Source: Bacteroidales bacterium (GTDB taxonomy: Bacteria > Bacteroidota > Bacteroidia > Bacteroidales > UBA10428). Taken from it: DNA of 64,000 nucleotides. This document shows, piece after piece, positions 23,492-57,400 of the stretch; positions within the stretch are counted from its first letter, which is position 1; each line of letters opens with the position of its first letter. Where the stretch lies: assembly GCA_965230395.1 (NCBI GenBank), contig CBDDKV010000002.1:1408947-1472946 (forward strand), written 5' to 3'. The notes beneath the pieces are model-generated. The model saw only the letters and a list, made by a program, of their open reading frames with translations, was not told the origin of the DNA and did no database searches. Position numbers and translations under genes: made by a program.

Positions 23492-23582
23492 CAAAGTAAC
23501 GCAGAATGAAAATGTCAGCCTGAAAAAACAGGTTAACGAAAAGTAACATAAGGTTCAAATTAGGTTAACAAAAAGTTAACAA
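23492..23582 (-). promoter_or_regulatory. operator-promoter cassette P1 (two GTTAAC-type boxes + 27 nt + -7-like box)
   Basis: Gene-oriented reading: TTGTTAACTTTTTGTTAACCTA ... TATGTTACTTTTCGTTAACCTGTT, then 27 nt, then TTACTTTG. It lies about 90-180 bp upstream of the ATG at 23400. Confidence 0.65.
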
Positions 23583-24676
23583 AGCTTTGTTTTTGTTACC
23601 TGGTTTTGCTTTGTTTTTATGTATGTATTTGTTGGTTAGGTATGTAACACTTTTTGTGTGTGTCTTTTATCAAAAGTGCCCGGAAGAGAGAAAAATGAAT
23701 TTTGTATTCGATAAACCGGATTATTGCTCCGACAAACCAGATTATGATGAGGCCTTTCCGGATAAACAGACCATGTCTGATTTGTCTCGATGTTTCGGGA
23801 AGGACACACACAGCCAATGATTAATATCCATACCAATTCTCAGATCTGGTCATAAATTATAAACCTTTCTAACTATGCAATTTTATAGCTGTCTTTTTGG
23901 GGCTTTAAGAAAAAATTATAAAGACAAAGGTTTGGCAATAGTTCCTGACGCTTGGCTTTCATTGTTATATTATTTGAAGGGAATAGAACAGTTCAATTTT
24001 ATATATTTTGTCATTCAATGCCCCCAAGATTTTTCAAATTCTACCAAGTGTAATGACAGGGAAAATTGTAATTTTTTGCGCCTTGGCTTATACAGTGTGG
24101 CTGGTCCTCGAATAGTGCATTTTGCCTGTAATCTGTAATTGTGTGAGAGTGCTCAAGTTTTTCTTTTTATTCACCTGTTTGTGTCTTTAATTCATGTTCA
24201 TGAACTCCCTTTGGTCGGTACCATTGATGAAAAAGAAACCAACCGAATGAAATGAGTTCACGAACATTCCTAATACTATACACTTGTGAGTAAAAAACCT
24301 AGAAAAAAGTAAACTTGTCGGTTTTCCATTGCATACCCGACTCACGTGGCACATATTTTTTTTAGCGGCCTCTCAAAACATTGTCCCCTTTTCTTGTTTC
24401 CTTTACCTTAATATTACTAAATTATCAATTGGTTGATTTTTAGATAGGTATGTAATTCTGTCATCGGTAGATCCAATACTCTTTTAATGGATTACGCACC
24501 TTTGTGCTTGTTGTTGGAGTGGGTGGATAGGGTATTTTGGTGTTATTCGGATAAAGTGCCAACGGAGGGTAATTCCCGTGCACTACAAGTATAAAACTAA
24601 GACAAGATTCTTACCTGCAACGGTTTGTTGAATTAGTAAATCGTTTTTGTAGCACAATATTTTTTCATGTTAATAC

Positions 24677-27273
24677 ATGAAATTAATTTTGTGTCAAACA
24701 AATAACAATGGAATGCCAGGAAAAACTACAAACGCTATTTTTTTATCCCTGATCTTGTTTCAGATATTCACCTCAAATCTTCAGGCTAACGAAAGAAGTA
24801 ATTTACCATATATTATTGATAGTCTTGAAAAAGCGCTTTGGGAGCATGATAATTATGACACAACAAGGGTTAACCTTCAAATAGAAATTGCCAAGAAATA
24901 TTTTACAACAGATATAAATAAGCTAAAAGAAAATTCAGAAACAGCTATTGCTGTTGCTGAGTCAATCGGGTATGAAGCAGGAAAAGCAAAAGGTTTATTT
25001 TTGGTAGGGGTTTACTATAGAATAAATAGCCAGTATGATTCTGCATATTATTATTTTGAGTCAGCCCTGAACATATTTAATGAGCAAGAACTTGCTATGG
25101 ATGCCGCACGATGCATAATAGTTTGGGGAATATTTCCACTTCCCGGGGAAAGTACTCCAGGGCCAGAGAACATTATAAAATGGCAAGGGAGATTTTTCAT
25201 GAGAAGTTGAATTATGGAGGAGAAGCAGCAGTTTACCTTAATCTTGGCCGTATTGCAAATAAAAAGGGGGATATCCCAAGGTCTATTGAATTATTTAATA
25301 AGTCGCTGGATTTATACACAAAGGTAAAGGATAAGCCCAATCAATGTCTGTCACTAAGATTTCTGGGGAGGGCTTATAAAAAGTCAGGGAACTATTCTAT
25401 TTCAATAAAATATTACATGGATGCACTTGATATATCGAGGGAGTCGGGTAATAAAAATATTGAGTCGGTTGTATTACAGTCGGTAGGTGATGTGTTTTTC
25501 GAGCGGGAAGAATATAAAGATGCTCTCCGTTATTATGTGAATTCACTGGATATTACCAGGGAAATAAAAAGGGCACGAGATCTTCCCCAGAGATGCAATA
25601 AGGTAGCGCAGACTTATATGAAACTCGACAGTCTGGATAAAGCAATCGAATACTATACCAAATCGGTCAAATCAACCGGATATGGAAAAACGCATTTAAG
25701 CCTGGCCTATGCTTATGAAGGAATTGCTAAGATTTCTTTGAGGAAGGGAAGTCGGGAAGAAGCATCAAAATATTATAATAGAGCTTTACATGAAGTGAGG
25801 GGGACGAATGATGAGTTAGGCATTGCTGTAATTAACAATGGTTTTGGGGAATTCTTGTATCAGGACAGAAATATAGCAGTAGCTTTAGAATATTTTAAAA
25901 AGGGCTTAAAATATGCTCAGAAGGCCGGGTCAGTTTTAGAAGCCAGAAATGCCTATAAAGGGTTGGCAACTATTTATGAAGAACTTGGGGATTATAAAAA
26001 CGCACTGGAATGCTTTAAGCTGTACAAGCATATGACCGATAGTGTTCTGAACACAGAAAATACGAAAAACATTACACGCGAAATAACGAGATTACAATAT
26101 GAAGAGGAAATTAAGGAATTAGAACAAGAACAAAAAGACAGGGAAGCTGAATTGGAAAGAGAAAAACAAGAGAAGGTTATAATGCGCAATACATTTATAA
26201 TTGCTTTTTCCTTCCTGTTTATACTTGCAGCTTTTATCTTCTTTAGTCTGCAACCAAAAAGAAAGCACAATAAATTACTGGAAAGACTTAACAGTGAGAT
26301 TCTGAAACAAAAAGATGAGCTAAAAAAAACAAATGAAAAGCTTGTTGAGTTAGATGAGTTCAAACAAGGAATGACCGGTATGATTGTTCATGATCTTAAG
26401 AATCCGCTTAACGCTATTTTAAATCCATCCGCATCTCTCCCGCTTGAGGGACAGCTGAAAATGGCAAAGCAGTATGGAAAACAAATGCTCAACATGATCC
26501 TTAATATTCTCGACTTGCAAAAGTACCAGGATACCAAAATGGTTCTTGACTTGTCCGCTTGTAGTATTGTTAAGTTAATTAATAAGGCAATAGAGGAGGT
26601 TCAGTTTTTATGCGAATCAAAAAATATATCTGTAAAAAACAATGTGTTTTCAGACTTTGGAATAATGGCCGATTCGGAGATTCTTAACAGGGTGTTTATT
26701 AATTTGTTGACTAATGCTGTTAAGTTTTCACCCAGTGAAGGGGAAATTATCATTAAGGTAGAAATATTACCGGATACAGGTATGCTTAAAATTTTTGTTT
26801 CTGATGAGGGGGCAGGTATTCCGGACGATAAACTGGATGAGGTTTTTGATAAGTTTGCCCAGGTACAGGTAAAGGAATCAGGGACAGTAAAATCGACAGG
26901 GCTGGGGCTTACCTTTTGTAAAATTGCTGTTCATGCACATGGAGGAGAAATTAGAGTGGAAAGTGATCTGGGGAAAGGTTCAACGTTCTGGTTTACATTA
27001 TGTCCTGCAAATTCAGAAGAAACAGTTACTGCTGAAATAAAACCAGTTAGCGCAGAAAAGAACTTACCAAGGTTAACAGAAAAAGAAAAGGAAGGGATAT
27101 AGGCATATTTGAACCAACTAAGGGAAACAAAAATTTATCATATAAGCCGGTTAAGGAAAATCCTGTCGGAGGTAGACGCAGCAGGTGATGAAAATATGAA
27201 GCATTGGAAAGATTCCGTTGAAAACGCAATCTACTTAGAGAATAAGGAGGAATTTAAAATGTTGGTAGAATAA
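24677..27273 (+). pseudogene. TPR-repeat sensor histidine kinase, paralog of 4210..6645, with a frameshift and an in-frame stop
   Basis: ORFs 24677..25210 and 25111..27102 overlap in different frames, and the TPR text continues across the junction near 25105-25116. H-box MIVHDLKNPL; ATPase boxes LLTNAVKFS, DEGAGI, STGLGLTFC. After the TAG at 27100-27102 the same frame continues to 27273. It encodes AYLNQLRETKIYHISRLRKILSEVDAAGDENMKHWKDSVENAI. This matches the C-terminal extension of the intact paralog (LYALRNTRIYEISKLRKILAETESDKNENIERWKEAVERAV). Confidence 0.8.
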
Positions 27274-27527
27274 AAAAGGGAGGTGAAAATAATAAAAAGA
27301 AGTTTTATGTATAAAGACAAAAGTTACCCTGCTGTTCAAAAAAGAGCTCTCCGTCAACCCACGGAGAGACTCAGTATAATTCCTCAATACGTTGTTAAGT
27401 AAATCCATTTTTAACATTGTAAAAGGAATGTCTTTATTAAAACAATTTTTTGTAACAGAGGTTGAATTTAAAAACACCTGGAACACTTATTTAAGTGTTA
27501 ATGTTTCCGAAGTTGTTCGAATTATTC

Positions 27528-27803
27528 CTAAAATTTAGAATACAACTTTTCTGAACAAATTTGAGGGTGTCCAATAGTTATAATAATACATAATAGTAAT
27601 ATTGTCGCAAAAATAAGAAAATTATATGCGATATAACAAATTCTTCCAACAGAAAGTCGGACGGGCTTTGCTTCAGTCAAGTCTACAATGAGATACTCAG
27701 ATAGAAAATAATAGCATATCCATCGTTTTTTTAATGTCTGGCTAAGAGTCTGTTTGTGAGGGCACAATGTTGCTCGCGCATTCATTGTTTCAGAAGTGTC
27801 CAT
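27528..27803 (-). CDS. possible small membrane protein (weak call)
   Basis: 91-aa ORF with one hydrophobic segment (IAYNFLIFATILLLCIIITIG). No other support. Confidence 0.25.
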   Translation of the reverse strand: MDTSETMNARATLCPHKQTLSQTLKKRWICYYFLSEYLIVDLTEAKPVRLSVGRICYIAYNFLIFATILLLCIIITIGHPQICSEKLYSKF

Positions 27804-28040
27804 GCCCTTCGGTTTTAGTTTTAGTTTAAGCTTGTCATTGTTCCGTGGTCCTTAATACGCGGGGGAGTGTCTTTTTTTATTTTGCTTGGTTCGCGGTGTG
27901 GCCTGGCCTAAGGATGACAGCACGGATGAACTTTTCGGGGCATTACTGCCGGGTCGAATTAAGCTGGCCTTTCAGGCCGAAAATCCTGGTTCGTGGAAAT
28001 GGTTATGAGGTGTTTGATGTGTTTTGATGGATTGAAAACA

Positions 28041-28064
28041 CAGATCCCGGAGGCCCGGGATCTG
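28041..28064. terminator. GC hairpin, terminator-like on both strands
   Basis: CAGATCCCGG-aggc-CCGGGATCTG, followed by GTTTTCTCGTTTG on the plus strand and TGTTTTCAAT on the minus strand. It is homologous to the hairpin at 32397-32418. Confidence 0.45.
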
Positions 28065-28240
28065 GTTTTCTCGTTTGCAAACCGCAAACTTTGAATTAAC
28101 CACCGAACTACTATATCTTTTGCTGTATGCAGTCTTTTAAACTGAATGAAGGACCGTTAAATTCCGACAAAATTTACCGAAAATTCATTTTATAATCATC
28201 GTTACAAATTCTTTAAATGTTCCTTTGGCTTCATACATTA

Positions 28241-28332
28241 CAAAGAAACCAGCTTTGTGGCAGTTAACCTAATAAAACAGGTTAACAGAAAGTAACAGCT
28301 TTTCGTAAACAGGTTAACAAAAAGTTAACAGG
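28241..28332 (-). promoter_or_regulatory. operator-promoter cassette P2 (no obvious gene downstream)
   Basis: Gene-oriented reading: CCTGTTAACTTTTTGTTAACCTGTT ... CTGTTACTTTCTGTTAACCTGTT, then 27 nt, then TTTCTTTG. Confidence 0.6.
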
Positions 28333-28499
28333 AGGGGGGCTTGTTCGGATTGAAATAACCCGCCACGGTACTTGGTGCGTGTGTTTTTTCTTTTCATCAT
28401 TCATATGTAATGATTTAGGGGCATGATAAACATTTGTTGGGTTTCCCCATTCTGAAGTTTAGTTTTTTCATTTGGCTTTGCTGGTTCATTTCTGTAGGA

Positions 28500-28533
28500 A
28501 TAAAAAAAGCTGCCCCAGAAAGTGAGGCAGCCT
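28500..28533 (-). terminator. rho-independent terminator candidate for 28566..32303
   Basis: On the minus strand, GGCTGCC-loop-GGCAGC is followed by a T8 run (plus-strand A run at 28502-28508). It lies 35 nt after the stop codon. Confidence 0.5.
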
Positions 28534-28565
28534 TGAAAAAAGGTTCGCGTTTATGGGTATTTTCC

Positions 28566-31500
28566 CTAATTTTTAATTATCCGGAACAATTTCACCTCAT
28601 TTGAACCATCAATAATCTTTAAAAAGTATACCCCTGTTTGCATTTGGCGCATATCTACTTTAGTTTCACTTTGCGTAAGTTCTTTTTCTGCCGCTAGTTT
28701 TCCGTTCGTGTCCCAGAGTTTGTATGTCATGGCCCCGGAGAAAGAAGACGCGTCAGATACAATTGTTAGTTGTTCTGTTACCGGGTTCGGATATGTTTTA
28801 ATCGTAAGGTTTTTCGTTTCTTCTAATCCTGAAGTAATTATTTTAATTGTTTTTGAGGCTACATCATCCGAGCATTCACCATATGCTGTAAGTGAAATTT
28901 CGTAGGAACCACTTCCTGAATAAATATTCACAGGATTGGCAAAAGAACTGGTGTTTCCATCTCCAAAATCCCAAAGATAACCAGTAGCCCCGGTTGAAGA
29001 GTTGGTGAAAAATACGGTCTTGTCGGAAAGTACAGGTTCAAATTCAGCCTTTGTAACGGATTGATAAACGATAATGGAGTCTTTTAATTCATTATCACAA
29101 TAGTCTGTCAAGGTCAGGTAATGCATTCCTGTTTTTTCTGTTTTTATAGAGTTTGTTTCCTCTCCTGAGCCCCATAGGTACCTGGCGGCAATTACATGGG
29201 TTGATAACTCAACCGGTTCCGAACAGAGTAAAGCAGAATCAGCGCTGAATGCCTGTTGTGGCAGTGCATCCGGTTGAAATATAACAATAGTGTCGGAAAT
29301 ACTGTTTCCGCAATAATCAGATGCAGTCAGGTGATATTTCCCGGCTTCGTTTATTATGACAGAAGCGGAGTTTTCGCCCGTGCTCCACGCATATGTATAT
29401 GCTTCGTTTTGAGACGACAGTTTAACAGGGACGGAACAATAGGCTATGGAATCGGCATCAAACAAACCGGTCATTGGGGCATTTAGCTCATGGGCACCGT
29501 TTGTCGGGTTGCTACCGGGTCTTTCTGCCCCATCCAGATCTTCTGTTGCCAGCCCGTCCATGCCCATGTTTAAATTCTCTGTAGAGCAGTTGAGATGCAG
29601 GTCTGTGTCGTTATTCACATAGCTAACCTCAGTATTGAAAGCGTTTTCACCAAATCCCAGGGATTGAAAATTCTCAAGCGTGACGGCTTCGGTGTTGTCG
29701 TAATTATCTTTAAAGAAGGTATAGGTGCCATTCATATCGTAGGTGTTGTGAGATATCTTCAGCCCATTATATACCTGGTCGGTTTCAAATATCAGGTAGT
29801 CGTTCGTGCTGTGTGCTTTAAAAATATTGTTTCTGATATTAAGTTTGTTCACAGCAACCAGGCTGATAAGTTTTTCTCCCGAAACTATGCTGTCTGTATA
29901 TGTAGAGTTATGATAAACATTGGCATTTGAAACTTTGAATAAATCAACCGGGGTTTGGAAACCGGTTACCGTATTGTTTTTAACCTCACCCGGGGTTGCG
30001 GTGAAATATGAAGTGTTAATTTTTATACCTTTACTTACAGAGTCGGCAAAGAGTTTGTTTTTCTCAATAATTAAATCATCACAGTAGCCAACCATAATTC
30101 CAATACCGGAATATTCCTTTACAGAAGCATCATTTTGAAATGTTATTTCATTACCGGCAACATGCAGGCCGTTAATTTTATTGGTAGATATACCACGGCC
30201 ATTCGTTGCTATATTGTGAAGGGTGTTGTTCTCAATAATAACAGGTATAGAATTACCTCCTGAATGCGATATCAGGTAGATACCTTCCAATGATTTACTG
30301 TCATTATTGGCGTATATGTTATTGTTTTTAATCCAAACACCGTCACTAACATTCATAAAATGTATGCCGCAATGGTTTGAATAAAAATTGTTGCCATCAA
30401 TTACAACATTGGACGAACCTCCGTTTTCAGATTTGACATATGTGCCGTAGTATGCCTGTGAAGTGTTGTTTGTAAGGTTTACATTACTGACCAGGTTATA
30501 GTATGAGCGGATATGAATTCCATAATTGCTGCTAAGGTGACTTACCTTGAAGTTACTGTTTTTAATATCTACATTCTTCAAATATTGACGCTTTGTTAAT
30601 ATTTCAAGAGCATTGCCCAGTTCGGAGTTAACTTCACAACTATCTATGGATATCCCGTCAATAATGCCGGAATCATCGCCGGTTATAAGGAATGCAGTTT
30701 CATTTTTAGCATCAATTTTCAACTTGTTAAAGGCAATATCACTTATTCCTCCCCCAAAATCTAAGTTAAACCCGTAACCTGTAGTATTGATTTCGTTATT
30801 AAAGAAATACGATGATTTTATTTGTGCCCCGTCGCCGTAAAAATTAAACCCACCTGCAACCTTATCAGGATCTGCATTATACGTGGCTATACAGTTTGTA
30901 ACATTTATGTTTTCAGCGTAACCGCTATTACACCTGAAATAAAACAATTCTTCATTGGTAAAATTAGTGCCATTTAACGATAATTGACAGCTGTCAACAA
31001 TAACGTTTTTTGCGCCACTGCCAAATTCAAGGATCAGGGTCGTATAAATATTGCTATTTAAGCCGGAGTTTTTTATCCGGATATTTTCTCCCGGACCGTC
31101 AAATACAACTAACCTTAAAGCTGATGGCCATCCATGTCTGTCGTACGTGTTTTCAATATCCATATTGTTGATTAACACCTCACTTAAACCTAATTTAACA
31201 TCAAACTTTACAGCAGAAGCTTCGGTTTTAGCCTTAATTTCACAATTTGAAAGGGTGATGTTCCGGGCAAAATAGTCTGTATTAAGATAGATTGCATTTG
31301 GATAGAAATCACCGGCATTTGACTCGATGTAATTGTCGGAAATTAAAATATTTGAAAGAAGGTCGTTGTCGGCAATAATTTGTATACCACTACCAGCCGA
31401 ATAGAGTTTGCAATTTGTAATTGTTATACTGTCAACAATTTCTTCGGCTTCAATGCGCAGCCCGCTTTCTTCCTCTGTTTTAACAGTAAGGTTGTTGAAA

Positions 31501-32303: not shown

Positions 32304-32396
32304 TGTAAGAAATTTAATTGTTAAGGCTTGAAGTGTTGTCCGAAGTCGTATTCTTCTTTAATCCCGGTGTAATTCCAGGTTGAAGAAAGAGAGGAA

Positions 32397-32418
32397 CTGA
32401 TCCCGGGGCCGGGATCAG
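32397..32418. other. intercistronic GC hairpin between the 556-aa and 1245-aa genes
   Basis: CTGATCCCGG-gg-CCGGGATCAG. The hairpin plus flanks (about 32390-32460) align by eye with 28036-28115. Confidence 0.5.
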
Positions 32419-32458
32419 GTTTCCTCAAAGTAAAAACCACAAACTACAAATCAAACCA

Positions 32459-34129
32459 TCAGAATGTTATAATCATTTTTTTTGTTGCAACTTTTTGTCC
32501 TTCGGCCAGCAAGGTGTAGAAATAATTTCCGGTGTGTAGTTCACCTTCGGCAATCTCTACAGCATCCATTCCACGGCCATACAAAGGGATATCTTTATAA
32601 AGTTTTCCGTTTATATCGTAAACGAGTAACCTGGCGTCTTTTACTTCATCGGGTAAGTAATAGTTGATCCTTGTTGTACTGCTCGCCGGGTTAGGTTTAT
32701 TTTGATATAGTTCTGCATTGGAAAAGGTTGTTGGCATTACAACAGACGGCGAACCTTTATGATACGATTTTAGTAATGCAATATCTGCCTCAAGATCTTC
32801 AATTTTGGCTTTTTGTGTAGTCAGAAGGGCTTCCTGGTCATCTAGTCTGCTGCTAATACTTTCCAGCAGGCCGCTCAAATCAACTGTGTTGCCGCCGGTA
32901 ATAGATAATTCGGTTCCCTTTATGGATAAAGTTTGCTCATCGGTATTTGCTTCGTAACCATCTTGAATAGCAGATAGATCAACCGAGTTTCCGTTTTCAA
33001 TTGAAAGCCGGGTCCCGTTTAAAGCAATTTTTTGAGTGTCCGTATTGTCCAGGTATGCGGCCAGGCTAATGGTATTGCCATTATCGATTGATAGTTTATT
33101 GTCAGTAAGCGTTAGTTTCTGCCCGGCCGTCAGTGATTTCCATTCTGTTGAATTGTAATATTTTAATTGATGGTCATTTCCGTCAAAATAAATGTCCCCT
33201 TCTTCGGCAGCCTGCGGTTGTTTTACCTGCGGTGTTAGTTTTAGCGCTCCATTTAACCTGATATTACCATTAACATCAAGTTTCTGGGTAGGGGGCTCAT
33301 TTTGCCCTAGTCCAATGTTCCCTTTGGTATCAATATAAAAGGCATTGTTTGGAGCTCCGGGTGCTATTAAAAATGGGGTGGTGTTCCCGTTTGTTATGTC
33401 ACGGATGAAAAATATTGAATCGCTGGCACCTATGTCCCATATCTGGGCTTTTTTGTTTTGTTCCAGGCGAATTGTTGGGGTGCTGGTGGTGTTGATATGA
33501 ACCTGCTTTTTAGGTAACTCTGTTCCAAAGCCTAAGTTGCCGTTTGCCGCAATAAATAACGAGTTTGTTGGGGCTTTAGGTTTAATTCTGAAAGGGAGCA
33601 GGTTCCCAACGGAGGCATCTCTAATGAAGAAGTTCGATTCGTTTCCGGCGATGTCCCAGGCCTGTTCTCCCCAGCCACTGTTGTTTTGGTCAAGTCGTAT
33701 AGCGGGTGTGTCATCATTGCTAATATGAAACGGTGTTGCCGGTGTATTCGTTCCAATACCTATTTTGCTGTCTTCAGCAACAAAAAGGGCGTCTGCTTTA
33801 GCACCTGCCATAACTTTAAAAGGAATTACACCCGCGGTGGCATCTTCGATAGCAAAATAGCTTTTACCTCCATGTTCGCTGCTGTTTGCAACCAGTGTCC
33901 AGTCGTTATCGGCAAAAAAACCGTCGTCTGAAGTATCATCAAAATGAATCCTTAGGTTGTTTTCTGTCAGTAAAACGGTATTAAACCCGAAAACGGGATT
34001 GTCAGGTGTATCTAACCCAACGGCTAAACTACTTTTGACTTTCACATCACCAGTAAAGGTGTTTTGAGAAAAAGAATGGATCGCAATAAGCCATGTCAGC
34101 AGGGTTAGTGGTATTTGTTTTATATTCAT
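32459..34129 (-). CDS. secreted fibre-like repeat protein with T9SS sorting domain (556 aa)
   Basis: Signal peptide. Repeats of the type DNTDTQKIALNGTRLSIENGNSVDLSAIQDGYEANTDEQTLSIKGTELSITGGNTVDLSGLL. Coiled coil DDQEALLTTQKAKIEDLEADIALLK. CTD LYQNKPNPASSTTRINYYLP...GNYFYTLLAEGQKVATKKMIITF. Confidence 0.88.
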   Translation of the reverse strand: MNIKQIPLTLLTWLIAIHSFSQNTFTGDVKVKSSLAVGLDTPDNPVFGFNTVLLTENNLRIHFDDTSDDGFFADNDWTLVANSSEHGGKSYFAIEDATAGVIPFKVMAGAKADALFVAEDSKIGIGTNTPATPFHISNDDTPAIRLDQNNSGWGEQAWDIAGNESNFFIRDASVGNLLPFRIKPKAPTNSLFIAANGNLGFGTELPKKQVHINTTSTPTIRLEQNKKAQIWDIGASDSIFFIRDITNGNTTPFLIAPGAPNNAFYIDTKGNIGLGQNEPPTQKLDVNGNIRLNGALKLTPQVKQPQAAEEGDIYFDGNDHQLKYYNSTEWKSLTAGQKLTLTDNKLSIDNGNTISLAAYLDNTDTQKIALNGTRLSIENGNSVDLSAIQDGYEANTDEQTLSIKGTELSITGGNTVDLSGLLESISSRLDDQEALLTTQKAKIEDLEADIALLKSYHKGSPSVVMPTTFSNAELYQNKPNPASSTTRINYYLPDEVKDARLLVYDINGKLYKDIPLYGRGMDAVEIAEGELHTGNYFYTLLAEGQKVATKKMIITF

Positions 34130-34155
34130 GATGATGTGATTTAATTGTTGAGGTA

Positions 34156-34246
34156 CAAAATAAAGGCCTATTCGTAAACTAACCTAAAACAACAGGTTAA
34201 CGAAAAGTAACAAGCAGCCTTAAACAGGTTAACAAAAAGTAAACAG
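34156..34246 (-). promoter_or_regulatory. operator-promoter cassette P3
   Basis: Gene-oriented reading: CTGTTTACTTTTTGTTAACCTGTTT ... CTTGTTACTTTTCGTTAACCTGTT, then 27 nt, then TTATTTTG. The box lies about 27 nt before the ATG at 34129. Confidence 0.65.
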
Positions 34247-34562
34247 TTTATTGTTGCCGGAATAACTATTTTAAAGTATTGGTTATAAGAAAACGCCACG
34301 AACCGGGTTGTGCATGTCAGGAAAAAACACACTTACAACCAGTGAACTTTGTTTTTTCTGACGTTTTTCGTTACACCACAAAAAAACAACGTTTTATAAG
34401 TGTTGGGGTTATATGTTTTTTGTTTCTAATCGTTTGCGGTTACGACAATAGTATGCAATATTTCCCGAATGAAGGCTACGGGGAAATCAAAAGTGTTTTT
34501 GGTAAGACGAATTAAAATGTCCAGGTTAAATAATGGTTTGGGGGTAAGGTTGGTAGGCTAGG

Positions 34563-35231
34563 TTATAAGTTTTTGTAAAGTTCGTTTATTTTTTTGTTTG
34601 TTTTTCGACTTTCTGTAATGCTCTCATGCCGGGCATGTCCATTAAGGATATTGAAAAATTCGGAATCCTTGTTGCACACATATTTTATTGAGAGATCAAA
34701 ATCGTTGTGAAAAGTAATTGTATTCCTTCTGCAGTCAACTATATAGTCCTGTTTGGTGTTTAATTGCAGTTTCTCATGACTAAGGTACTTCTCTTTTAAA
34801 AGATCAATTATTTTGTCTTTGTCTTCATCTTTAAGGTCAGAGAAAGTATAGCAGTAAAAAAACAACTTCTTTTTGTAAAAGTGCAACTCTAATTTAGCTT
34901 TATAGTCTCCCAGATATATTTTGTAAAAGAGGATTAGTACTTTCCCAATGGAGAGGTTATTGGATATTCTATAGTTTGGTTTCCCTGTTTTTCTAGTGAT
35001 GTACTTCGGTGTAATTCCATCTACTTTCAGGCTTCTTGATAGTGATATTTGTCGGTCTGTAACTCTTTTGTTTTTACTTTTTGCATGAGCCAGTTCATAG
35101 TATGAAGAAATATCACGATAGTTTTCCTGTAGCTTTGTGTAATACGACTCTCTGAAGCAGTATCTTTTTTTTCTGTTAAAGTAAATCAGAAACTGATTAA
35201 GTGTTTTGTTCCTTATTCTTGGCATACTCAT
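34563..35231 (-). CDS. hypothetical protein, Lys/Asn/Tyr-rich orphan
   Basis: 222-aa ORF with no competing frame. It is visibly more AT- and Lys-rich than its neighbours. A consensus -7 box TATTTTTG (plus-strand caaaaata at 35313-35320) lies about 80 nt upstream. No recognisable motif. Confidence 0.55.
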   Translation of the reverse strand: MSMPRIRNKTLNQFLIYFNRKKRYCFRESYYTKLQENYRDISSYYELAHAKSKNKRVTDRQISLSRSLKVDGITPKYITRKTGKPNYRISNNLSIGKVLILFYKIYLGDYKAKLELHFYKKKLFFYCYTFSDLKDEDKDKIIDLLKEKYLSHEKLQLNTKQDYIVDCRRNTITFHNDFDLSIKYVCNKDSEFFNILNGHARHESITESRKTNKKINELYKNL

Positions 35232-35744
35232 ATAGTAGGTTTGTTAGCAAACGTTATAGGGATACAGTTTAATAAACTGTGTCTGGTATTTTTTGTTGAA
35301 AAAGACTCATTACAAAAATAAATTTTTACTTTAAAAATAAAAACATCCATATGATAATTGACTGTTAATATTGTTAGTTTGTTCTTACTGAATTAAAAAT
35401 CAGTGGATTATTCGTTGAAAAGGTGTGGCGTTAAGAAGCTGTAAATAGGATGCTTTTATCAACACAAGTTATTCTATGAGAAAGGGGCAAGTACTTCTGG
35501 AATCATGGTATAGAGGGCTTTTTCTCATCGCTATGGCAGATGTGTTAATTTTTCCTGAGATGTTCATTAAATAGGCTGTCCCAAAATCTCACCAAAGTTT
35601 TTTACAGGTAGTTTTCCGTTATTAATTAATGTCTCCTTAATATGGATTAGGCAAATATGCCGGGGAGAGCATAATTTAGTCATAGGGTAAAATACTTTGG
35701 CTCAACAATAAGGACAGCCTGACGGATGAGTTATAAATTAGTGT

Positions 35745-38700
35745 TTATTTTAGAATAATCATCTTTTCTGTACCCACCTTTTGTCCGTTTGCAAGCAGCG
35801 TATAAAAATAACTCCCGGGGGGCAGCACAGCTTCAGCAACCTCAACAAATGCCATTCCTCGGTCATAGATATGTATGCCTTTGTGTAATTTTCCATTGGT
35901 ATCATAAATCAGCATTTTTGCATTTTTTACTTCTTCTGGTAAGTAATAGTTAATTCTTGTGGACCCATTAGCTGGGTTGGGGATGTTTTGATAAAGTTTT
36001 GCACTGGAGAATACGGATGGTGTTATCATTGAAGGTGAATCATCAATGTAGGTTTTAAGCAAGGCTACATCAGCTTCCAGAGCTTCAATTTTTTCATCCT
36101 GATTATCAAGCCTTGAATATATTCCCTCAAGCAGAGAGGTAAGATCCACGGATACAGAAGAACCGTTTTCTATTTCAATGGTTAAAGTGGTCCCACTTAA
36201 GTTTGCGGCAGTCAGGTTCTGATTGTCGGTTCCTGAACCATCTGCAATAGAACTCAAATCAACAGTATTCCCGTTTTCAATTGAAAGCGAAGTTCCGGAC
36301 AGGGTCAGTTTTTGAGCATCTGTGTTGTCAAGATACTTCTCTAAGTCAACTTTTGTTGTACCACCGGAAATGCTCAGTGTGTTTAAATCAAGGTTTAATT
36401 CCTGGCTGTCGGTATTGGGCTCATATCCATCTTTCAGACTGCTAACATCAATGGCGTTTCCACCCGATATGGACAGGTTTGTTCCGTTTAAAGCAAGCGT
36501 TTGCTCATCGGTATTTGCTTCGTAACCGTCCTGAATAGCGGATAGATCGATTGAGTTCCCATTGTCAATTGAAAGCTGGGTTCCGGACAGGCTCAGGTTT
36601 TGAGCATCTGTGTTGTCAAGATACTTCTCTAAGTCAACTTTTGTTGTACCACCGGAAATGCTCAGTGTGTTTAAATCAAGGTTTAATTCCTGGCTGTCGG
36701 TATTGGGCTCATATCCATCTTTCAGACTGCTAACATCAATGGCGTTGCCGCCCGATATGGACAGGTTTGTTCCGTTTAAAGCAAGCGTTTGCTCATCGGT
36801 ATTTGCTTCGTAACCGTCCTGAATAGCGGATAGATCGATTGAGTTCCCATTGTCAATTGAAAGCGAAGTTCCGGACAGGCTCAGTTTTTGAGCATCTGTG
36901 TTGTCAAGATACTTCTCTAAGTCAACTTTTGTTGTACCACCGGAAATGCTCAGTGTGTTTAAATCAAGGTTTAATTCCTGGCTATCGGTATTGGGCTCAT
37001 ATCCATCTTTCAGACTGCTAACATCAATGGCGTTTCCACCCGATATGGACAGGTTTGTTCCGTTTAATGCAAGCGTTTGCTCATCGGTATTTGCTTCGTA
37101 ACCGTCCTGAATAGCGGATAGATTAACTGAGTTCCCATTGTCAATTGAAAGCGAAGTTCCGGACAGGCTCAGGTTTTGAGCATCTGTGTTGTCAAGATAC
37201 TTCTCTAAGTCAACTTTTGTTGTACCACCGGAAATGCTCAGTGTGTTTAAATCAAGGTTTAATTCCTGGCTGTCGGTATTGGGCTCATATCCATCTTTCA
37301 GACTGCTAACATCAATGGCGTTTCCACCCGATATGGACAGGTTTGTTCCGTTTAATGCAAGCGTTTGCTCATCGGTATTTGCTTCGTAACCGTCTTGAAT
37401 AGCGGATAGATCAACTGAGTTCCCATTGTCAATTGAAAGCTGGGTTCCGTTTAAAGCAATTTTTTGAGTGTCTGTATTGTCCAGGTATCTTTCCAGGTTT
37501 ATAGGGTTTAAACCTTCTGAAATCCCAAGCATATTATTCTCAAGAAACAATTCCTGGTTGTCTGTATTGTCAAGATATGCTTCAAGGTTTACAGAATTTC
37601 CATTTTCGATACTCAGTACATTGTCGGACAGACTAAGGCTTTGACTGTCGGTGCCCGACTTAGACCAGGCCGTGCCATTCCATGCATAAAGTAAGTCTTC
37701 GTCGGTATCAAAAACGAGCATACCTTCGTCATTTGTTCCTAGTGAAGCCTTAAAAGTTGCTCTTTGCTCCGTTGTCATTCTACTGATTAGAAAACCTTTA
37801 TTTGTTTCCGCCAGATCAAGTGAAGCATTTTGGTTAGGAGTGGAAGTGCCGATTCCTACCGACATTCTTGTTTCATTTGTTGTTCCGCCAATTACAAAGC
37901 TATTATTGGCTGCCACAACTGCATTGGCTCCAATTACCCCGGCATAGTCCCTTTCTCCTGAAATTACCGCATCGTAACCAATCCCAATGTTATAATTATT
38001 GCCGGGTCCATCATAAGATGTTTGTGAAAAGTCAGTTAAAGCGCCCAACATGACATTAAATTGACCCTTTCTGTTTGTATATCCTGTTCTATACCCTAAA
38101 TAGGTGTTGTAATTTGCATCGTAGGTGTTACTGTACCTGTTATTGTCAAATCCCGCATACGACCCCACAAAAGTATTGTAGTTAGCGTGCTCAGTAGCAG
38201 CGCCTGCAGCCTGTCCCAGAAGTGTGTTATGATGTCCGGATCCTACGTCGGTACCTGCTGAATCTCCCAGAAAAGTATTTTTGTAGCCATCTTCCAGGTC
38301 CCATCCGGCTTCTCGGCCAATAGCCGTGTTTTTTGAGCCACTGTTTATGGAATACCCGGCTGCTTGTCCCACAAAGGTGTTGTGGCTGCCTGTTGATACC
38401 CCGGAACGGGCTCCTTTTCCCGCATTTTCTCCTATATATGTATTGTGTACACCTGTTGTCACATTTTTACCAGCTTCTTCGCCAACGAAAGTGTTGTCAT
38501 TTCCAGTTGTATTATTTAATCCGGCTTCACTTCCGATAAACGTATTGTCATGAGATTGGCTATTAGAAAGGCCGGCATTTGTTCCAATAAAAACATTGTT
38601 ATAACCGGTAGTGTTGTTGTAACCAGACATGTAGCCAATAAATGTATTGTCATCTGTAGCATTAAGAAAACCGGCGCCATAGCCAAAAAAAGTATTGTTC

Positions 38701-38879
38701 TTTTGTGTTGTTATGGCCTGGCCTGCGTCTTCACCAACAAGCGTATTGTAGCTTCCTGTTGTTATGCTTTTCCCGGCATTATTTCCAGCCCGGTAAACTC
38801 CTGTTTGGGCATTAACAGAAATGTTTGCCCCCAAAAATAAAAAGCAGGTTAATATTAAGGTAAGTAATGGTTTGTTCAT
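35745..38879 (-). CDS. secreted fibre/adhesin-like protein with head repeats, 4 x 96-aa tandem repeats and T9SS sorting domain (1044 aa)
   Basis: Signal peptide. The N-terminal third consists of short N.xxG..AG repeats (NTLVGEDAGQ, NTFFGYGAGF, NVFIGTNAGL, NTFIGSEAGL, NTFVGEEAGK, NTYIGENAGK) reminiscent of YadA-head or tail-fibre repeats. Four near-identical 96-aa units follow, then the coiled coil DNQDEKIEALEADVALLK. CTD LYQNIPNPANGSTRINYYLP...GSYFYTLLANGQKVGTEKMIILK. Confidence 0.9.
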   Translation of the reverse strand: MNKPLLTLILTCFLFLGANISVNAQTGVYRAGNNAGKSITTGSYNTLVGEDAGQAITTQKNNTFFGYGAGFLNATDDNTFIGYMSGYNNTTGYNNVFIGTNAGLSNSQSHDNTFIGSEAGLNNTTGNDNTFVGEEAGKNVTTGVHNTYIGENAGKGARSGVSTGSHNTFVGQAAGYSINSGSKNTAIGREAGWDLEDGYKNTFLGDSAGTDVGSGHHNTLLGQAAGAATEHANYNTFVGSYAGFDNNRYSNTYDANYNTYLGYRTGYTNRKGQFNVMLGALTDFSQTSYDGPGNNYNIGIGYDAVISGERDYAGVIGANAVVAANNSFVIGGTTNETRMSVGIGTSTPNQNASLDLAETNKGFLISRMTTEQRATFKASLGTNDEGMLVFDTDEDLLYAWNGTAWSKSGTDSQSLSLSDNVLSIENGNSVNLEAYLDNTDNQELFLENNMLGISEGLNPINLERYLDNTDTQKIALNGTQLSIDNGNSVDLSAIQDGYEANTDEQTLALNGTNLSISGGNAIDVSSLKDGYEPNTDSQELNLDLNTLSISGGTTKVDLEKYLDNTDAQNLSLSGTSLSIDNGNSVNLSAIQDGYEANTDEQTLALNGTNLSISGGNAIDVSSLKDGYEPNTDSQELNLDLNTLSISGGTTKVDLEKYLDNTDAQKLSLSGTSLSIDNGNSIDLSAIQDGYEANTDEQTLALNGTNLSISGGNAIDVSSLKDGYEPNTDSQELNLDLNTLSISGGTTKVDLEKYLDNTDAQNLSLSGTQLSIDNGNSIDLSAIQDGYEANTDEQTLALNGTNLSISGGNAIDVSSLKDGYEPNTDSQELNLDLNTLSISGGTTKVDLEKYLDNTDAQKLTLSGTSLSIENGNTVDLSSIADGSGTDNQNLTAANLSGTTLTIEIENGSSVSVDLTSLLEGIYSRLDNQDEKIEALEADVALLKTYIDDSPSMITPSVFSSAKLYQNIPNPANGSTRINYYLPEEVKNAKMLIYDTNGKLHKGIHIYDRGMAFVEVAEAVLPPGSYFYTLLANGQKVGTEKMIILK
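36290..37440 (-). repeat. in-frame tandem repeat, 288 bp x 4 near-identical copies, inside 35745..38879
   Basis: Plus-strand shadow ORFs recur at 36322, 36610, 36898 and 37186 (period 288) with nearly identical translations. The coding-strand unit is LSAIQDGYEANTDEQTLALNGTNLSISGGNAIDVSSLKDGYEPNTDSQELNLDLNTLSISGGTTKVDLEKYLDNTDAQ.LSLSGT.LSIDNGNS. Borders are approximate. Confidence 0.9.
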
Positions 38880-38922
38880 GATATGATGGTATTAAAATTT
38901 TAAATGTTCGTTTTAAACGGCA

Positions 38923-39013
38923 CAAAATAAGTGGCTGTTCAGAAAATAAAGAAGAAAAACGGGTTAACGAAAAGTAACATGCATACAAAAACAGGTTAGC
39001 AAAAGGTTAACAG
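38923..39013 (-). promoter_or_regulatory. operator-promoter cassette P4
   Basis: Gene-oriented reading: CTGTTAACCTTTTGCTAACCTGTTT ... CATGTTACTTTTCGTTAACCCGTT, then 27 nt, then TTATTTTG. It lies upstream of the ATG at 38879. Confidence 0.65.
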
Positions 39014-39182
39014 AATGCCTTGTAATTTTCAAAAGACTAACTTGTTTAGTATATAAGTTGTGTTTGTTGGCGGATTTCCTATCTGGAAAAATCAGATGAT
39101 GTAGCTTTTCCAAACCAACTTATTTTACCCTTATAAAATCTCTTCTTGTAATTTTGTTGATTCCGGATGATAATGGTAAAGG

Positions 39183-39308
39183 CTATTTGACACAAAACAA
39201 TTTCTTGAAATCATCATTTAAAGGATATTTTTCAAATTCTTCTCCATGAAACCACATTAGTTTTTTTAGGATATATTCTTTTGAATACTCTTCTTTTTTC
39301 ATTTTCAT
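39183..39308 (-). CDS. candidate 41-aa mini-ORF downstream of cassette P5 (weak)
   Basis: ATG at 39308, TAG at 39183-39185: MKMKKEEYSKEYILKKLMWFHGEEFEKYPLNDDFKKLFCVK. It starts about 55 nt after the -7-like box of P5. It falls below the 60-aa cutoff of the ORF track. Confidence 0.3.
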   Translation of the reverse strand: MKMKKEEYSKEYILKKLMWFHGEEFEKYPLNDDFKKLFCVK

Positions 39309-39363
39309 TGTTAGTAGTTTTTATTATTTCTTTATTATCTCATTCGTTATAATTTTTCTGGTG

Positions 39364-39455
39364 CAAAGAAAGTCAGTGCATGATAAAATATCGAATAAAG
39401 CAGGTTAGCAAAAAGTAACAAATTAAATAACAGGGGTTAGCAGAAGGTTAACAAG
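39364..39455 (-). promoter_or_regulatory. operator-promoter cassette P5
   Basis: Gene-oriented reading: CTTGTTAACCTTCTGCTAACCCCTGTTA ... TTGTTACTTTTTGCTAACCTGCTT, then 27 nt, then TTTCTTTG. Confidence 0.6.
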
Positions 39456-39688
39456 ATTATAAGGTGGCGTTTTTTTATGGCTTACGAATTTTAAGGACAC
39501 TACCCATTTTAACCGGGAAAGAGGTAGGGGTAATCTCTGATTGCCACTTTCAGAAAAAAAGTTTTATTCGCAACGGTTGATAGATACAATGAAAGTCGTT
39601 AAAAGTCAATTCGAAAAAGAACCGTAAAAGTTTGTTGTTTTAATTGATTATAAATCAGTATAATTGTTTAAAATCTATAAAAAGATAT

Positions 39689-40525
39689 ATGACCACAAAA
39701 AAACGGATATTGATTGTAGACGATCAGATAAGTTTTCTGGAAGCCATCGTTGAAATATTTGAACGCAATAATCAGGAATATGAGATATTCAGGACTACAA
39801 ACTCGGAAACAGCCATTGAGATAGCCAGGGAAGAAGTTCCGGATCTCATTATAACAGATTGGGAAATGCCCGTCTTGTCGGGTATTGAGATGATAAAGAG
39901 ATTAAAGGCAGACAGCAAAACGGCAGATATCCCTATTGTAATGTGTACCGGGGTAATGACCGGTCCGGATAATTTAAAAATAGCTTTGGAAGCCGGGGCC
40001 ATTGATTACATAAGCAAACCCATCGACGAGACTGAGCTTATTGCACGAACACAGTCAATTTTGAAAATAGCCGAATATCAAAAGCAGCTTCTGGAACAAA
40101 AGAACAGGGAGTTGGCAGAGAACTCAATGTACCTGGTGCAGAACAACGAGTTTTTAATCAAAATGATAGAGAAGCTTGAATTTGTCTCAAAAAATGTGGA
40201 TCATAAAAATGAAGTGCAGGGCTCCATTGGTGATTTGTTGAGCTCAATAGAGTCAAAAGTAAAGGAAGATTCATGGAACCGGTTTGATGTTTATTTTCAA
40301 AGGGTACATCATGGTTTCCAAAAAAACTTAACATCCAAGTTTCCATCACTTTCACCGTCTGAATTAAAGCTGTGCACATTTCTGCGCTTAGGGATGAATT
40401 CTAAGGATATTGCATCCGTTAATTTTCAGACAGTCGAAAGTGTCAAGGTTGGCCGTTCCCGTTTACGTAAAAAGTTTAACCTCGATAAGGATACTAATCT
40501 TGTGACCTTTCTATCGTCGTTTTAG
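39689..40525 (+). CDS. response regulator, receiver + LuxR/GerE-type HTH
   Basis: The probable start is the ATG at 39689 (MTTKKRILIVDDQ); the listed 39644 start is TTG. Receiver: DLIITDWEMPVLSG...CTG...SKP. C-terminal HTH: LSPSELKLCTFLRLGMNSKDIASVNFQTVESVKVGRSRLRKKFNL. Confidence 0.9.
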   Translation: MTTKKRILIVDDQISFLEAIVEIFERNNQEYEIFRTTNSETAIEIAREEVPDLIITDWEMPVLSGIEMIKRLKADSKTADIPIVMCTGVMTGPDNLKIALEAGAIDYISKPIDETELIARTQSILKIAEYQKQLLEQKNRELAENSMYLVQNNEFLIKMIEKLEFVSKNVDHKNEVQGSIGDLLSSIESKVKEDSWNRFDVYFQRVHHGFQKNLTSKFPSLSPSELKLCTFLRLGMNSKDIASVNFQTVESVKVGRSRLRKKFNLDKDTNLVTFLSSF

Positions 40526-40540
40526 TTTCGGTTAATTTTT

Positions 40541-40599
40541 CATGTTACCTTTTGTTAACCTTTTTTTAGAAATACGGGGCGAGAAACTGTGTATATTTG
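40541..40599 (+). promoter_or_regulatory. operator-promoter cassette P6 (proximal box only, plus-strand orientation)
   Basis: CATGTTACCTTTTGTTAACCTTTT, then 27 nt, then TATATTTG (exact TAnnTTTG) at 40592-40599. A degenerate distal box may overlap the end of the regulator gene. Confidence 0.55.
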
Positions 40600-41174
40600 A
40601 AAAAAACAATTAACCAGTAAAAGTGGAAAACATAAGCGAACGGCTAGAAAAATTAAAGGAAGAAATTAGAGAGCAATCGGAAGTACTCAGGAAAATTGTA
40701 GGAAAAGTAACCATCGTTAAAACAGAGGGAAATAAAGAAGAGGAATTAGAGGAATAATTGGAGAGACAGGTATAGGGGGTGAAGGTTTTTTCGTTATTGT
40801 AAAAGACAAGGGGGTAAAAGAAATATTTCTTATTAACTGAAATTCATGGACCGGACCGGAACCGGGAAGTTTATATTCTATTCATACATACTGCCTGAAG
40901 GCACAGCATTTATTACATCTTTAAACGCCAGGGAAAAGTTCTGTGTTTTTCGTACGAATAGATTCTAACAATATTCTCAATACTAAAAATTATTCTTATC
41001 TTGTATAGTTGAGAAGTTGTCAACTCTTAGGTTAGCGCAAAATCTAACCAATGAGCGTGATGAAATTTCACCCGTTCGGTTCTGTCAGGTACTGAATCGA
41101 ATTTGTTAGTGAAGGGGAACAAAGTAAGTTAAAGGAACAAGTGTTTGGATAACAGTAGAAGAGGGGGTAGGTTG

Positions 41175-44906: not shown

Positions 44907-45557
44907 ATGCAGGTTCAGACACTTATTCCACATGTAAATAATCAAAGAATTTTATCCATTATTGAAGAAATTACTTTGGAAGAAAACGTGAAAGCGTTGA
45001 AACCTTCAATTCGTCTTATTAGCGAATATGAACAAGGGACAAAGCTTTTTATCATCAAATCGGGTATAGTGAAAATAGGAATAACCGATAAAGAAAAAAA
45101 CTTACTGCTTGATTTTGCCGTAGTTGGAGATGTGGTTGGTTTTTCTTTGTTAAATAATAGTGAGGCCTCTTTCTTTGCCGAAACACTTACCGAGACAGAA
45201 TTGTTTGTTTGGGAATTAGCAAAAGTAACTGAACTCCTTGATCTGTTCCCGGTTTTCAAGACAGAAATTCTCTCGTTTAATACCTCGTATATCCGGAACC
45301 TTACGAACCGTATCAGATCGCTGGCTTTTATGAACTCAAAACAGCGGGTTTATGACTGGGTAACTACATATTTGAGCACGGATAAATACGTAATGAATGA
45401 TATTTGGGAGAAAATTTCATTTACAGACATGGCCCGTTATTGTATGGTTAGTGAGGAAGAATTTAAAAAACAATTCAATCTGCTGGTATTAAACGGAAAA
45501 TTAAAGCTATTTAATGATAAGCCTGTTGAATTTGAAGATAACCCAAAGGTGTGTTGA
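44907..45557 (+). CDS. Crp/Fnr-family transcriptional regulator
   Basis: 216 aa. cNMP-binding-like beta-roll (LFIIKSGIVKIGITDKEKNLLLDFAVVGDVVGFSLL) followed by a C-terminal HTH region (FTDMARYCMVSEEEFKKQFNLL). Confidence 0.7.
   Translation: MQVQTLIPHVNNQRILSIIEEITLEENVKALKPSIRLISEYEQGTKLFIIKSGIVKIGITDKEKNLLLDFAVVGDVVGFSLLNNSEASFFAETLTETELFVWELAKVTELLDLFPVFKTEILSFNTSYIRNLTNRIRSLAFMNSKQRVYDWVTTYLSTDKYVMNDIWEKISFTDMARYCMVSEEEFKKQFNLLVLNGKLKLFNDKPVEFEDNPKVC

Positions 45558-57308: not shown

Positions 57309-57400
<92 letters not shown>

Follow-up and report, generated by a model that had tools for sequence, protein, structure and literature searches.

Genomic context of the cassettes

The 64-kb window analysed here, a stretch of 64,000 nucleotides (nt) from the assembly GCA_965230395.1 of a Bacteroidales bacterium (contig CBDDKV010000002.1), contains an island of genes for large type IX secretion system (T9SS) surface proteins and, among these, a gene for a response regulator of 278 amino acids (aa) with a receiver (REC) and a LuxR-type domain. 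Six intergenic sites share an operator-promoter cassette, and these cassettes, numbered C1 to C6 in coordinate order, are the subject of this study (Table 1). By sequence reading and a regular expression (regex) scan of the window, 11 boxes of the form GTTA(A)C-N5-GYTAACC were found at the six sites, reproducing the positions proposed in the initial annotation of this DNA. All six cassettes point to their downstream side, C1 to C5 on the minus strand and C6 on the plus strand. C5 and C4 form tandem promoters that are both directed toward the gene of a 1044-aa protein, with C5 lying farther upstream.

The proximal box has the form TGTTACyTTyyGyTAACC in the six cassettes, and in the five on the minus strand a distal box lies 33 nt upstream of it (start to start). 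Anchored on the AC of T[TA]AC, the half-sites fall at offsets 0, +11, +32 and +43 without gaps, and the proximal box therefore appears one base shorter than the distal one. C6 carries the proximal box only, as had been noted before; this box begins 18 nt past the stop codon of the regulator gene (17 nt intervening), and the expected position of a distal box falls on the 3' end of that gene. Downstream, the gap between the ACC of the proximal box and an octamer ending in TTTG is 31 nt in six of six cassettes, which equals the fixed 27 nt originally counted from the trailing yGyT. The octamers also read as first given.

Table 1. Positions of the cassettes and of other features in the 64-kb window (ORF, open reading frame; HTH, helix-turn-helix; cNMP, cyclic nucleoside monophosphate; ECF, extracytoplasmic function)
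Feature	Position	Strand	Remarks
C1	23492..23581	-	distal box 23581-23562; proximal box 23548-23531; -7-like TTACTTTG 23499-23492; predicted start ~23487
C2	28241..28330	-	distal box 28330-28311; proximal box 28297-28280; -7-like TTTCTTTG 28248-28241; predicted start ~28236
C3	34156..34245	-	distal box 34245-34226 (GTTTAC variant); proximal box 34212-34195; -7-like TTATTTTG 34163-34156
C4	38923..39012	-	distal box 39012-38993; proximal box 38979-38962; -7-like TTATTTTG 38930-38923
C5	39364..39453	-	distal box 39453-39434; proximal box 39420-39403; -7-like TTTCTTTG 39371-39364
C6	40543..40599	+	single proximal box 40543-40560; -7 box TATATTTG 40592-40599
REC-LuxR-type response regulator, 278 aa	39689..40525	+	proposed binder of the boxes
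TPR-HisKA-HATPase sensor kinase, FimS-like architecture, broken	24677..27273	+	frameshift between 25111 and 25210; in-frame stop 27103-27105; separate 54-aa ORF 27109-27273
TPR-HisKA-HATPase kinase paralogue, intact, 811 aa	4210..6645	+	far end of island
Mini-ORF, 44 aa, GTG start	40623..40757	+	first gene after C6
Reg_prop/Y_Y_Y/GAF membrane sensor-like protein, 1105 aa	41145..44462	+	behind C6 and mini-ORF; no kinase domain
Candidate non-coding transcript, ~200 nt	28030..28236	-	behind C2
Terminator-like hairpin	28064-28041	-	closes stretch after C2
Fibre-like protein, 491 aa	23400-21925	-	faced by C1
T9SS protein, 4186 aa	21782-9222	-	faced by C1
556-aa protein	34129-32459	-	faced by C3
1245-aa protein	32303-28566	-	faced by C3
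Repeat protein, 1044 aa	38879-35745	-	faced by C4/C5
222-aa ORF	35231-34563	-	after 1044-aa gene
41-aa ORF	39308-39183	-	after C5
IS200-like transposase fragment (Y1_Tnp)	6949-7278	-	after intact kinase
Hybrid HATPase-REC-AraC regulator, C-terminal part	55-1449	+	window edge
cNMP-binding (Crp-like) protein	44907-45557	+	just beyond island
tRNA	57309-57397	+	sole Rfam match in window
ECF-sigma-sized ORF	61822-62382		size only

Promoter architecture

A position weight matrix (PWM) was trained solely on boxes of other genomes, with the window excluded. The 11 window boxes scored 18.5-29.2 bits, and the next best site in the 64 kb reached 11.4 bits, a value inside the range of the maxima of 20 Markov shuffles (10.6-19.3 bits). 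The strict regex GTTA(A)C-N5-GYTAAC had no match in the window other than at the six sites, in agreement with the earlier impression that its housekeeping part lacks the full box. A chance origin of the boxes is excluded. Outside the boxes and the TTTG the cassettes fail to align (55 % mean column identity, with unrelated flanks and spacers), and therefore they are not copies of one duplicated segment. The longer mobile repeat that the initial annotation had named as a threat to its proposal is not seen either, as only boxes and TTTG are conserved among the cassettes.

The geometry is kept in other genomes. A sequence logo of 80 distinct promoters shows tTGTTaACCTTTTGcTAACC, followed by TAt.TTTg at +32 to +39. 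No position between box and -7 element is conserved in these 80 promoters, so there is no conserved -33 element. In 74 promoters of other genomes an exact TAnnTTTG occurs at offsets 30 (5 cases), 31 (20) and 32 (1), and at no other offset within 10 to 55; the spacer sequence varies between species and its length is preserved. This comparison lends support to the earlier proposal that box and octamer make up one functional unit of activator site and promoter at a fixed distance. In Bacteroidota the primary sigma factor has TAnnTTTG as its -7 element, located at -12 to -5 (PMC9723704, PMC7366714), and the -33 motif, a TTTG some 19 nt farther upstream, is often undetectable in these promoters (PMC7366714, PMC9723704). 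Judged by the features of primary-sigma (sigma-A/ABfr) promoters, the six cassettes have the -7 element at a fixed offset (6/6) and lack the -33 element. Within the window only C6 carries an octamer that begins with TA (TATATTTG); the other five are of the form TTnnTTTG. A scan for sigma-70-type promoters found fewer sites in the window than in its shuffles and is not meaningful for this phylum.

With TAnnTTTG placed at -12 to -5, the proximal box would lie at about -62 to -44 and the distal box at about -94 to -76. Each box consists of two T-G-y-T-A-A-C-C half-sites 11 bp apart, and the boxes are themselves 32 bp apart; given these periods, all four half-sites face the same side of the helix. 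An activator would be expected to bind in this way, upstream of the core promoter and on one helix face. Two-box cassettes are usual in the clade of the window (regulators at least 65 % identical) and also occur in a group of 39-43 % identity (L122, L124, L125, L127, L129), and a single box is found in most other distant relatives.

Linkage of the box to regulator genes in other genomes

A scan of GTDB genomes yielded 322 loci that encode relatives of the 278-aa regulator, of which 79 (1.06 Mb in total) were fetched. They belong to Marinilabiliales/Bacteroidales, including cultured Carboxylicivirga and Labilibacter strains, and their regulators are 39-83 % identical to that of the window. In the cultured Labilibacter sediminis CG51, boxes lie at 4683 and 10881 of locus L090; other cultured relatives are L. 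marinus Y11 and Carboxylicivirga fragile N1Y90. Of 96 box matches in the fetched loci, 73 lie on the strand of the regulator at 0-1500 nt past its stop codon, and for 51 the distance is no more than 500 nt. Such a post-regulator box is present in 45 of the 79 loci, and seven of the remaining ones hold less than 300 nt after the regulator gene. A TPR kinase gene lies directly upstream of the regulator in 51/79. The recurrent module consists of TPR kinase, regulator and cassette, followed by small ORFs and very large T9SS proteins. As the post-regulator position is the most conserved box site across the family, C6 occupies the canonical place.

The reverse test started from metagenome contigs with the exact consensus TGTTAACCTTTTGCTAACC. 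Among the low-GC contigs with at least 1.5 kb upstream of the box, a regulator homologue ends just before it in 14 out of 23; most other low-GC matches lie ahead of secreted proteins or mini-ORFs. Exact proximal-box scans of GTDB genomes gave 52 matches, compared with about 140 by a rough chance estimate that assumes uniform base composition. Most of these matches were discarded as chance hits or look-alikes, namely low-complexity repeats of Calditrichota, CtrA-like boxes of Alphaproteobacteria and a site in Emticicia. The two-box architecture was found only in Bacteroidales among them.

The initial annotation had advanced two ideas that bear on this survey, that of the REC-LuxR protein as candidate binder and that of a regulon private to the island. 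The first is strengthened, since the box adjoins homologous regulators in 45/79 loci and the recognition helix, like the box, is nearly invariant; a scan of window and related loci, along the lines of the PWM scan that had been suggested, likewise shows the window boxes standing out and the boxes clustering behind regulator homologues. The second does not hold in the form in which it was put: judging from the 79-locus survey, with the source genome scanned within the window, the operator is common to a large family of paralogous TPR-kinase/regulator pairs in Marinilabiliales/Bacteroidales and not peculiar to this island. The six promoters share one docking site, whose most likely ligand is the response regulator encoded in their midst. 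Found next to related regulators and at the same promoter distance in dozens of genomes, this site is probably part of a real, widespread and hitherto undescribed switch for secreted surface proteins.

The response regulator

The regulator comprises a PhoB/PleD-like receiver (residues 1-113; Pfam Response_reg, E 2e-25), a long helix (114-168), a second helix (173-206) and a divergent HTH domain of the LuxR/GerE type with scaffold helix 238-244 and recognition helix 249-262. Its homologues, about 278 aa in length, number more than 2,300 and come mostly from metagenome-assembled genomes (MAGs) of Bacteroidales. In an alignment of homologues the receiver residues D11, D12, D57 and K110 do not vary, and T87 hardly does. 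Nearly invariant, too, is the recognition helix, (V/I)K(V/T)xR(S/T/Y)RLRK (SVKVxRSRLRKK).

A profile of the 120 C-terminal residues matched solely LuxR/NarL-type DNA-binding domains in the PDB (DosR, EvgA, VraR, NarL and GerE; E ~1e-3). The AlphaFold2 (AF2) model, with a confidence (pLDDT) of 87, shows the receiver, a 55-residue helix, a helical hairpin with a 34-residue return helix, and a small helical HTH domain. Its full-length structural matches are StyR and FixJ, and similar to its long helix are the stalks of PleD, WspR and EutV. Some homologues of the regulator match Sigma70_r4_2. The protein had been called the island's only DNA-binding response regulator; its LuxR type stands, and the window also holds the fragment of a REC-AraC hybrid at its edge.

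The sensor kinases

Two TPR-domain histidine kinase genes in the window had been overlooked in the initial annotation. The one nearest to the cassettes matches FimS best among the NCBIfam models, at E 1.4e-50 and over positions 97-616 of the 618 in the profile. Its alignment with the Saccharicrinis homologue is spread over two reading frames, the alignment resumes after the in-frame stop, and the conserved C-terminal tail continues past this stop as a separate ORF. With a frameshift and a stop codon, the gene is either a pseudogene or affected by an assembly error. The regulator may have its working partner in the intact paralogue from the far end of the island, which has no adjoining regulator gene and is followed by the IS200-like transposase fragment. 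Both kinases are encoded 12-33 kb from the regulator gene, unlike the direct neighbourhood that characterises FimS/FimR-type systems and is seen in 51/79 related loci.

Genes downstream of the cassettes

C1 faces the genes of the 491-aa fibre-like protein and of the 4186-aa T9SS protein, the latter with a weak sorting domain besides PA14, laminin-G, Ig-like and fn3 domains (Pfam). Part of the 491-aa protein is duplicated internally (SGTARFYFRTKNG...IWNESNNNIH), and its C terminus forms a coiled-coil tail. The genes faced by C3 encode the 556-aa and 1245-aa proteins, both with T9SS type A sorting domains. Behind C5 and C4 lies the gene of the 1044-aa protein, which is built of about four near-identical tandem repeats of about 95 aa (YLDNTDAQ...TKVDLEK), and then the 222-aa ORF. 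An 899-aa orthologue of the 1044-aa protein in a Saccharicrinis MAG (CBDDLL01) is likewise encoded behind a two-box cassette (L013). The 491-aa and 222-aa proteins and the mini-ORFs belong to no Pfam or NCBIfam family and the 1044-aa protein to no Pfam family; for the 41-aa ORF after C5 the fetched loci gave no homologues.

C6 is followed by a mini-ORF that matches mini-ORFs of the loci L060 and L050 (tblastn E 5.6e-4 to 7e-3). They belong to a conserved family of small proteins of about 50 aa (45-60) with an N-terminal helix E-x-Q-x-x-x-L-K-K-I/V and a K/N-rich tail. In many loci the gene that comes first behind the post-regulator box is a member of this family, and a giant secreted protein usually follows next (L060 2110-2280 and 12564-12710; L050 2160-2306; further members in L071, L081, L084, L091, L093 and L107).

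Behind C2 there is no ORF, and neither a regulator-gene nor a mini-ORF remnant was found there. The stretch is closed by a terminator-like 10-bp GC-rich hairpin with a U tract (terminator scan) and folds better than its shuffles (z = -3.6). C2 may drive a regulator-dependent small RNA, without a homologue in the fetched loci. Of the two mini-ORFs in the initial list of cassette targets, the one behind C6 is borne out as a conserved small-protein gene, and the one behind C2 is not credible, a non-coding transcript being more likely.

In other genomes, T9SS sorting domains were present in 4/10 complete downstream proteins that were scanned. Apart from one TPR-SpoIIE phosphatase, the remaining ones have fn3, PKD, Lcl_C, endosialidase-chaperone or lectin/SprB domains. 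Precomputed Pfam matches add sorting domains in the giant proteins of L008 and L009. Targets elsewhere are mostly large secreted, T9SS or fibre-like proteins. The idea of a regulon of T9SS cargo alone is too narrow, as the targets also extend to a mini-ORF with the propeller-GAF sensor, possibly a small RNA and, in the nearest relative, the gene of an Fe-S protein.

Three further groups of small genes were observed next to boxes. The first encodes proteins of about 117-128 aa (MAFKITWEK.../MAYNIATDG...) behind tandem cassettes (L060/L009 11406-12414, L061 11001-11354) and gives only a faint STAS-like Pfam signal (E 0.19). The second is an 83-aa ORF (MKLFEPFDD...GFYHVTLV) directly behind two-box cassettes of the 39-43 % identity clade (L122, L127, L128, L129, L159, L175) and resembles a stand-alone beta-sandwich of the T9SS sorting-domain type. 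The third comprises HU/IHF-like genes of 94-96 aa (MTKADLI...) that follow a box or a box and mini-ORF (L071, L077, L080, L081, L084, L186, L189).

Proposed mechanism and alternative explanations

We consider it likely that the cassettes are activator-dependent promoters of the primary Bacteroidota sigma factor which are bound by the 278-aa regulator, with an operator common to the TPR-kinase/regulator family. The box sequences, their conservation and their co-location with the regulator gene are what we observed, and from these we infer binding, activation, transcription starts and an upstream signal as follows. The regulator would be phosphorylated on Asp57 by a TPR-domain histidine kinase and would dimerise via its receiver and the long coiled-coil helix, setting two LuxR-type HTH domains on one box. 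From this fixed upstream position it would recruit RNA polymerase to an otherwise weak promoter, and where two boxes are present two dimers would probably bind cooperatively. The predicted output comprises large secreted and T9SS surface proteins, the conserved mini-protein together with the sensor-like protein, and possibly a small RNA.

Several observations weigh against this proposal. GTTAAC is itself a palindrome, so that a direct or inverted orientation of the half-sites rests solely on the flanking T and C. The Pfam GerE match of the window protein is below threshold (E 0.004; 17 bits, cut-off 23.5); the homologues P0070 (37.6 bits) and P0015 (28.5 bits) pass it. About 40 % of the regulator loci have no recognisable box nearby, and among these are the closest homologues, which are located on short contigs (L197-L200) and gave no orthologous intergenic regions for footprinting. 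Because recognition helix and box are both almost invariant, there is little covariation between protein and site, and the only suggestive case is a second L060 paralogue with GTCAC/GTTTACC boxes. Paralogues with one common operator also raise a problem of specificity. Furthermore, in a Saccharicrinis locus with an 83 %-identical regulator the sole cassette (L058/L006 6296-6356, minus strand) precedes the gene of a 495-aa Fe-S/CCG protein. The kinase gene nearest to the cassettes is disrupted twice, and the organism is known solely from assemblies.

Among the alternatives, the boxes could be a real operator of another protein, such as the Crp-like protein, the REC-AraC hybrid or an HU-like protein, the proximity of the regulator gene being incidental. 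A cNMP-binding regulator is encoded near the island and near the related locus L007, HU-like genes follow the box in five loci, and AraC-type and OmpR-type proteins commonly use direct repeats. Across 39-83 % identity, however, only the regulator and the TPR kinase are consistently linked to the box, while Crp-like, AraC and HU genes are missing from most loci, and the invariant recognition helix parallels the invariant box. We therefore regard a different binder as unlikely. A role of the regulator as repressor or anti-activator seems to us quite improbable as well. The direction of regulation cannot be read from sequence, and some boxes right at the end of the regulator gene could act as roadblocks to read-through; yet the boxes are found at about -44 to -94, farther upstream than the core promoter and in fixed helical phasing, a conserved -33 element is missing, and five of the six -7 boxes in the window deviate from TA, a pattern typical of activator-dependent promoters. 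The related FimR is moreover an activator (PMC1974823).

There is very little to suggest that the box is the upstream element of an alternative, ECF-type sigma promoter. It does contain AAC, as do many ECF -35 elements, the window has an ORF of the size of an ECF sigma factor, and the Sigma70_r4_2 matches of some regulator homologues point in the same direction. Against this, nothing is conserved 16-18 nt past the box in the 80 promoters (no CGT-like -10), conservation is found instead at the primary-sigma -7 motif 31 nt away, the box, unlike a -35 element, is repeated in tandem and often occurs as a pair 32 bp apart, and no sigma gene is linked to it across the loci. An origin of the cassettes from a small repeat that moves or recombines and has no regulatory role, similar to miniature inverted-repeat transposable elements, is barely conceivable in spite of the six copies within 17 kb and the IS200-like transposase fragment, as conservation is confined to boxes and TTTG with unalignable flanks and spacers, terminal inverted repeats and target duplications were not found, the cassettes are invariably oriented toward a gene, and the architecture is kept across genera with unrelated spacer sequence.

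Within the favoured scheme of an activator regulon, the mini-protein could be the circuit's third player: induced by the regulator, this peptide would feed back on the TPR kinase or on the coiled coil of the regulator, or would gate the giant cargo gene. Paralogous pairs might be insulated or wired by mini-proteins of their own, and C2 would add a small RNA. We offer this as a speculation that is rather doubtful at present.

Almost nothing is known about the timing of very large T9SS-secreted surface proteins in Bacteroidota, and few transcription-factor operators have been defined in this phylum. The analysis offers a precise operator, TGTTAACCTTTTGCTAACC, that ends 31 nt upstream of the -7 box and comes with a named candidate binder. 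The module itself is found again in hundreds of genomes, cultured strains of Carboxylicivirga and Labilibacter among them. If correct, the operator would make regulon prediction feasible across Marinilabiliales/Bacteroidales and would provide an inducible promoter of defined geometry for these bacteria. We regard the finding as a solid prediction, made from sequence, of a two-component activator regulon and not as a new principle. Literature searches found no description of the box sequence or of a regulon that combines TPR kinase, LuxR-type regulator and T9SS.

Comparison with known systems

Regulators of the NarL/FixJ group, which are of the LuxR type, act at upstream sites, and MalT is a LuxR-type activator that uses direct-repeat boxes. 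The system described here agrees with these in the combination of a receiver (as in NarL/FixJ), whose characteristic residues are present, with a C-terminal four-helix LuxR/GerE HTH domain, in several short sites upstream of a weak promoter and in the proposed recruitment of the polymerase. It differs from NarL/FixJ in that the receiver sequence is nearer to the PhoB/PleD type, the partner kinase is of the HisKA (PF00512) and not of the HisKA_3 type, and the typical short linker is replaced by a long coiled coil (helices of 55 and 34 residues). In addition, the half-sites are apparently tandem with an 11-bp period instead of the usual inverted pair, and the promoter is of the Bacteroidota -7 type.

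The box is also nearly identical to the CtrA box of Alphaproteobacteria (TTAA-N7-TTAAC), with TTAA-CCTTTTG-CTAAC and the same 11-bp period. CtrA, however, is an OmpR-type winged-helix regulator of a different phylum, and no CtrA-type protein is linked to the box here. We rejected the CtrA box as a look-alike, as the alphaproteobacterial matches have no -7 element at +31. High-GC contigs with the exact consensus show a conserved, CtrA-box-like context upstream of ChpT-like genes (ICHDLxSPLGA; L141, L152, L155, L158, L163, L165, L166, L174, L177, L181, L187, L194). Another site, TGTTACTTTTTGCTAACC, is conserved in four Emticicia species (L014, L041, L046, L057) about 270 nt upstream of a 112-aa ORF that resembles sigma-70 region 4; these sites lack a -7 box at +31, and no homologue of the regulator is encoded close by.

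In Porphyromonas gingivalis the two-component system PorX/PorY-SigP is connected with type IX secretion (PMC4800418, PMC8050853). PorX differs in having a PglZ/alkaline-phosphatase-like output domain, and it works by way of an ECF sigma factor on the secretion machinery genes; the regulator linked to cargo genes in the present case is of the LuxR type. The window regulator resembles the PorX model mainly in the receiver domain.

The closest characterised system is FimS/FimR of P. gingivalis (PGN_0904/PGN_0903; PG1432/PG1431), in which a TPR-domain kinase is paired with a LuxR-family regulator that activates fimbrial genes and binds upstream of mfa1 and of the fim cluster's initial gene (PMC1974823, PMC5706477, PMC2637884). 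No published consensus site for FimR was found in the literature. As in FimS, TPR repeats precede the HisKA and HATPase domains in the window kinases, and the kinase by the cassettes is broken just as FimS is mutated in some strains, W83 among them (PMC5706477). The window regulator is of the LuxR type like FimR (PMC2637884), but at 278 aa it is longer than FimR (227 aa, 684-bp ORF) and has a 55-residue helix and a helical hairpin before the HTH. The targets are T9SS and fibre-like proteins instead of type V pili. Since the kinase scores 172 bits with the FimS model, far from the equivalog cut-off of 600, it is not a FimS orthologue. The two systems are alike in architecture but do not look like orthologues, FimR having been compared by length and description. 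If our proposal is correct, the idea embodied in FimS/FimR, a TPR kinase and a LuxR-type regulator in control of surface structures, would reach beyond Porphyromonas.

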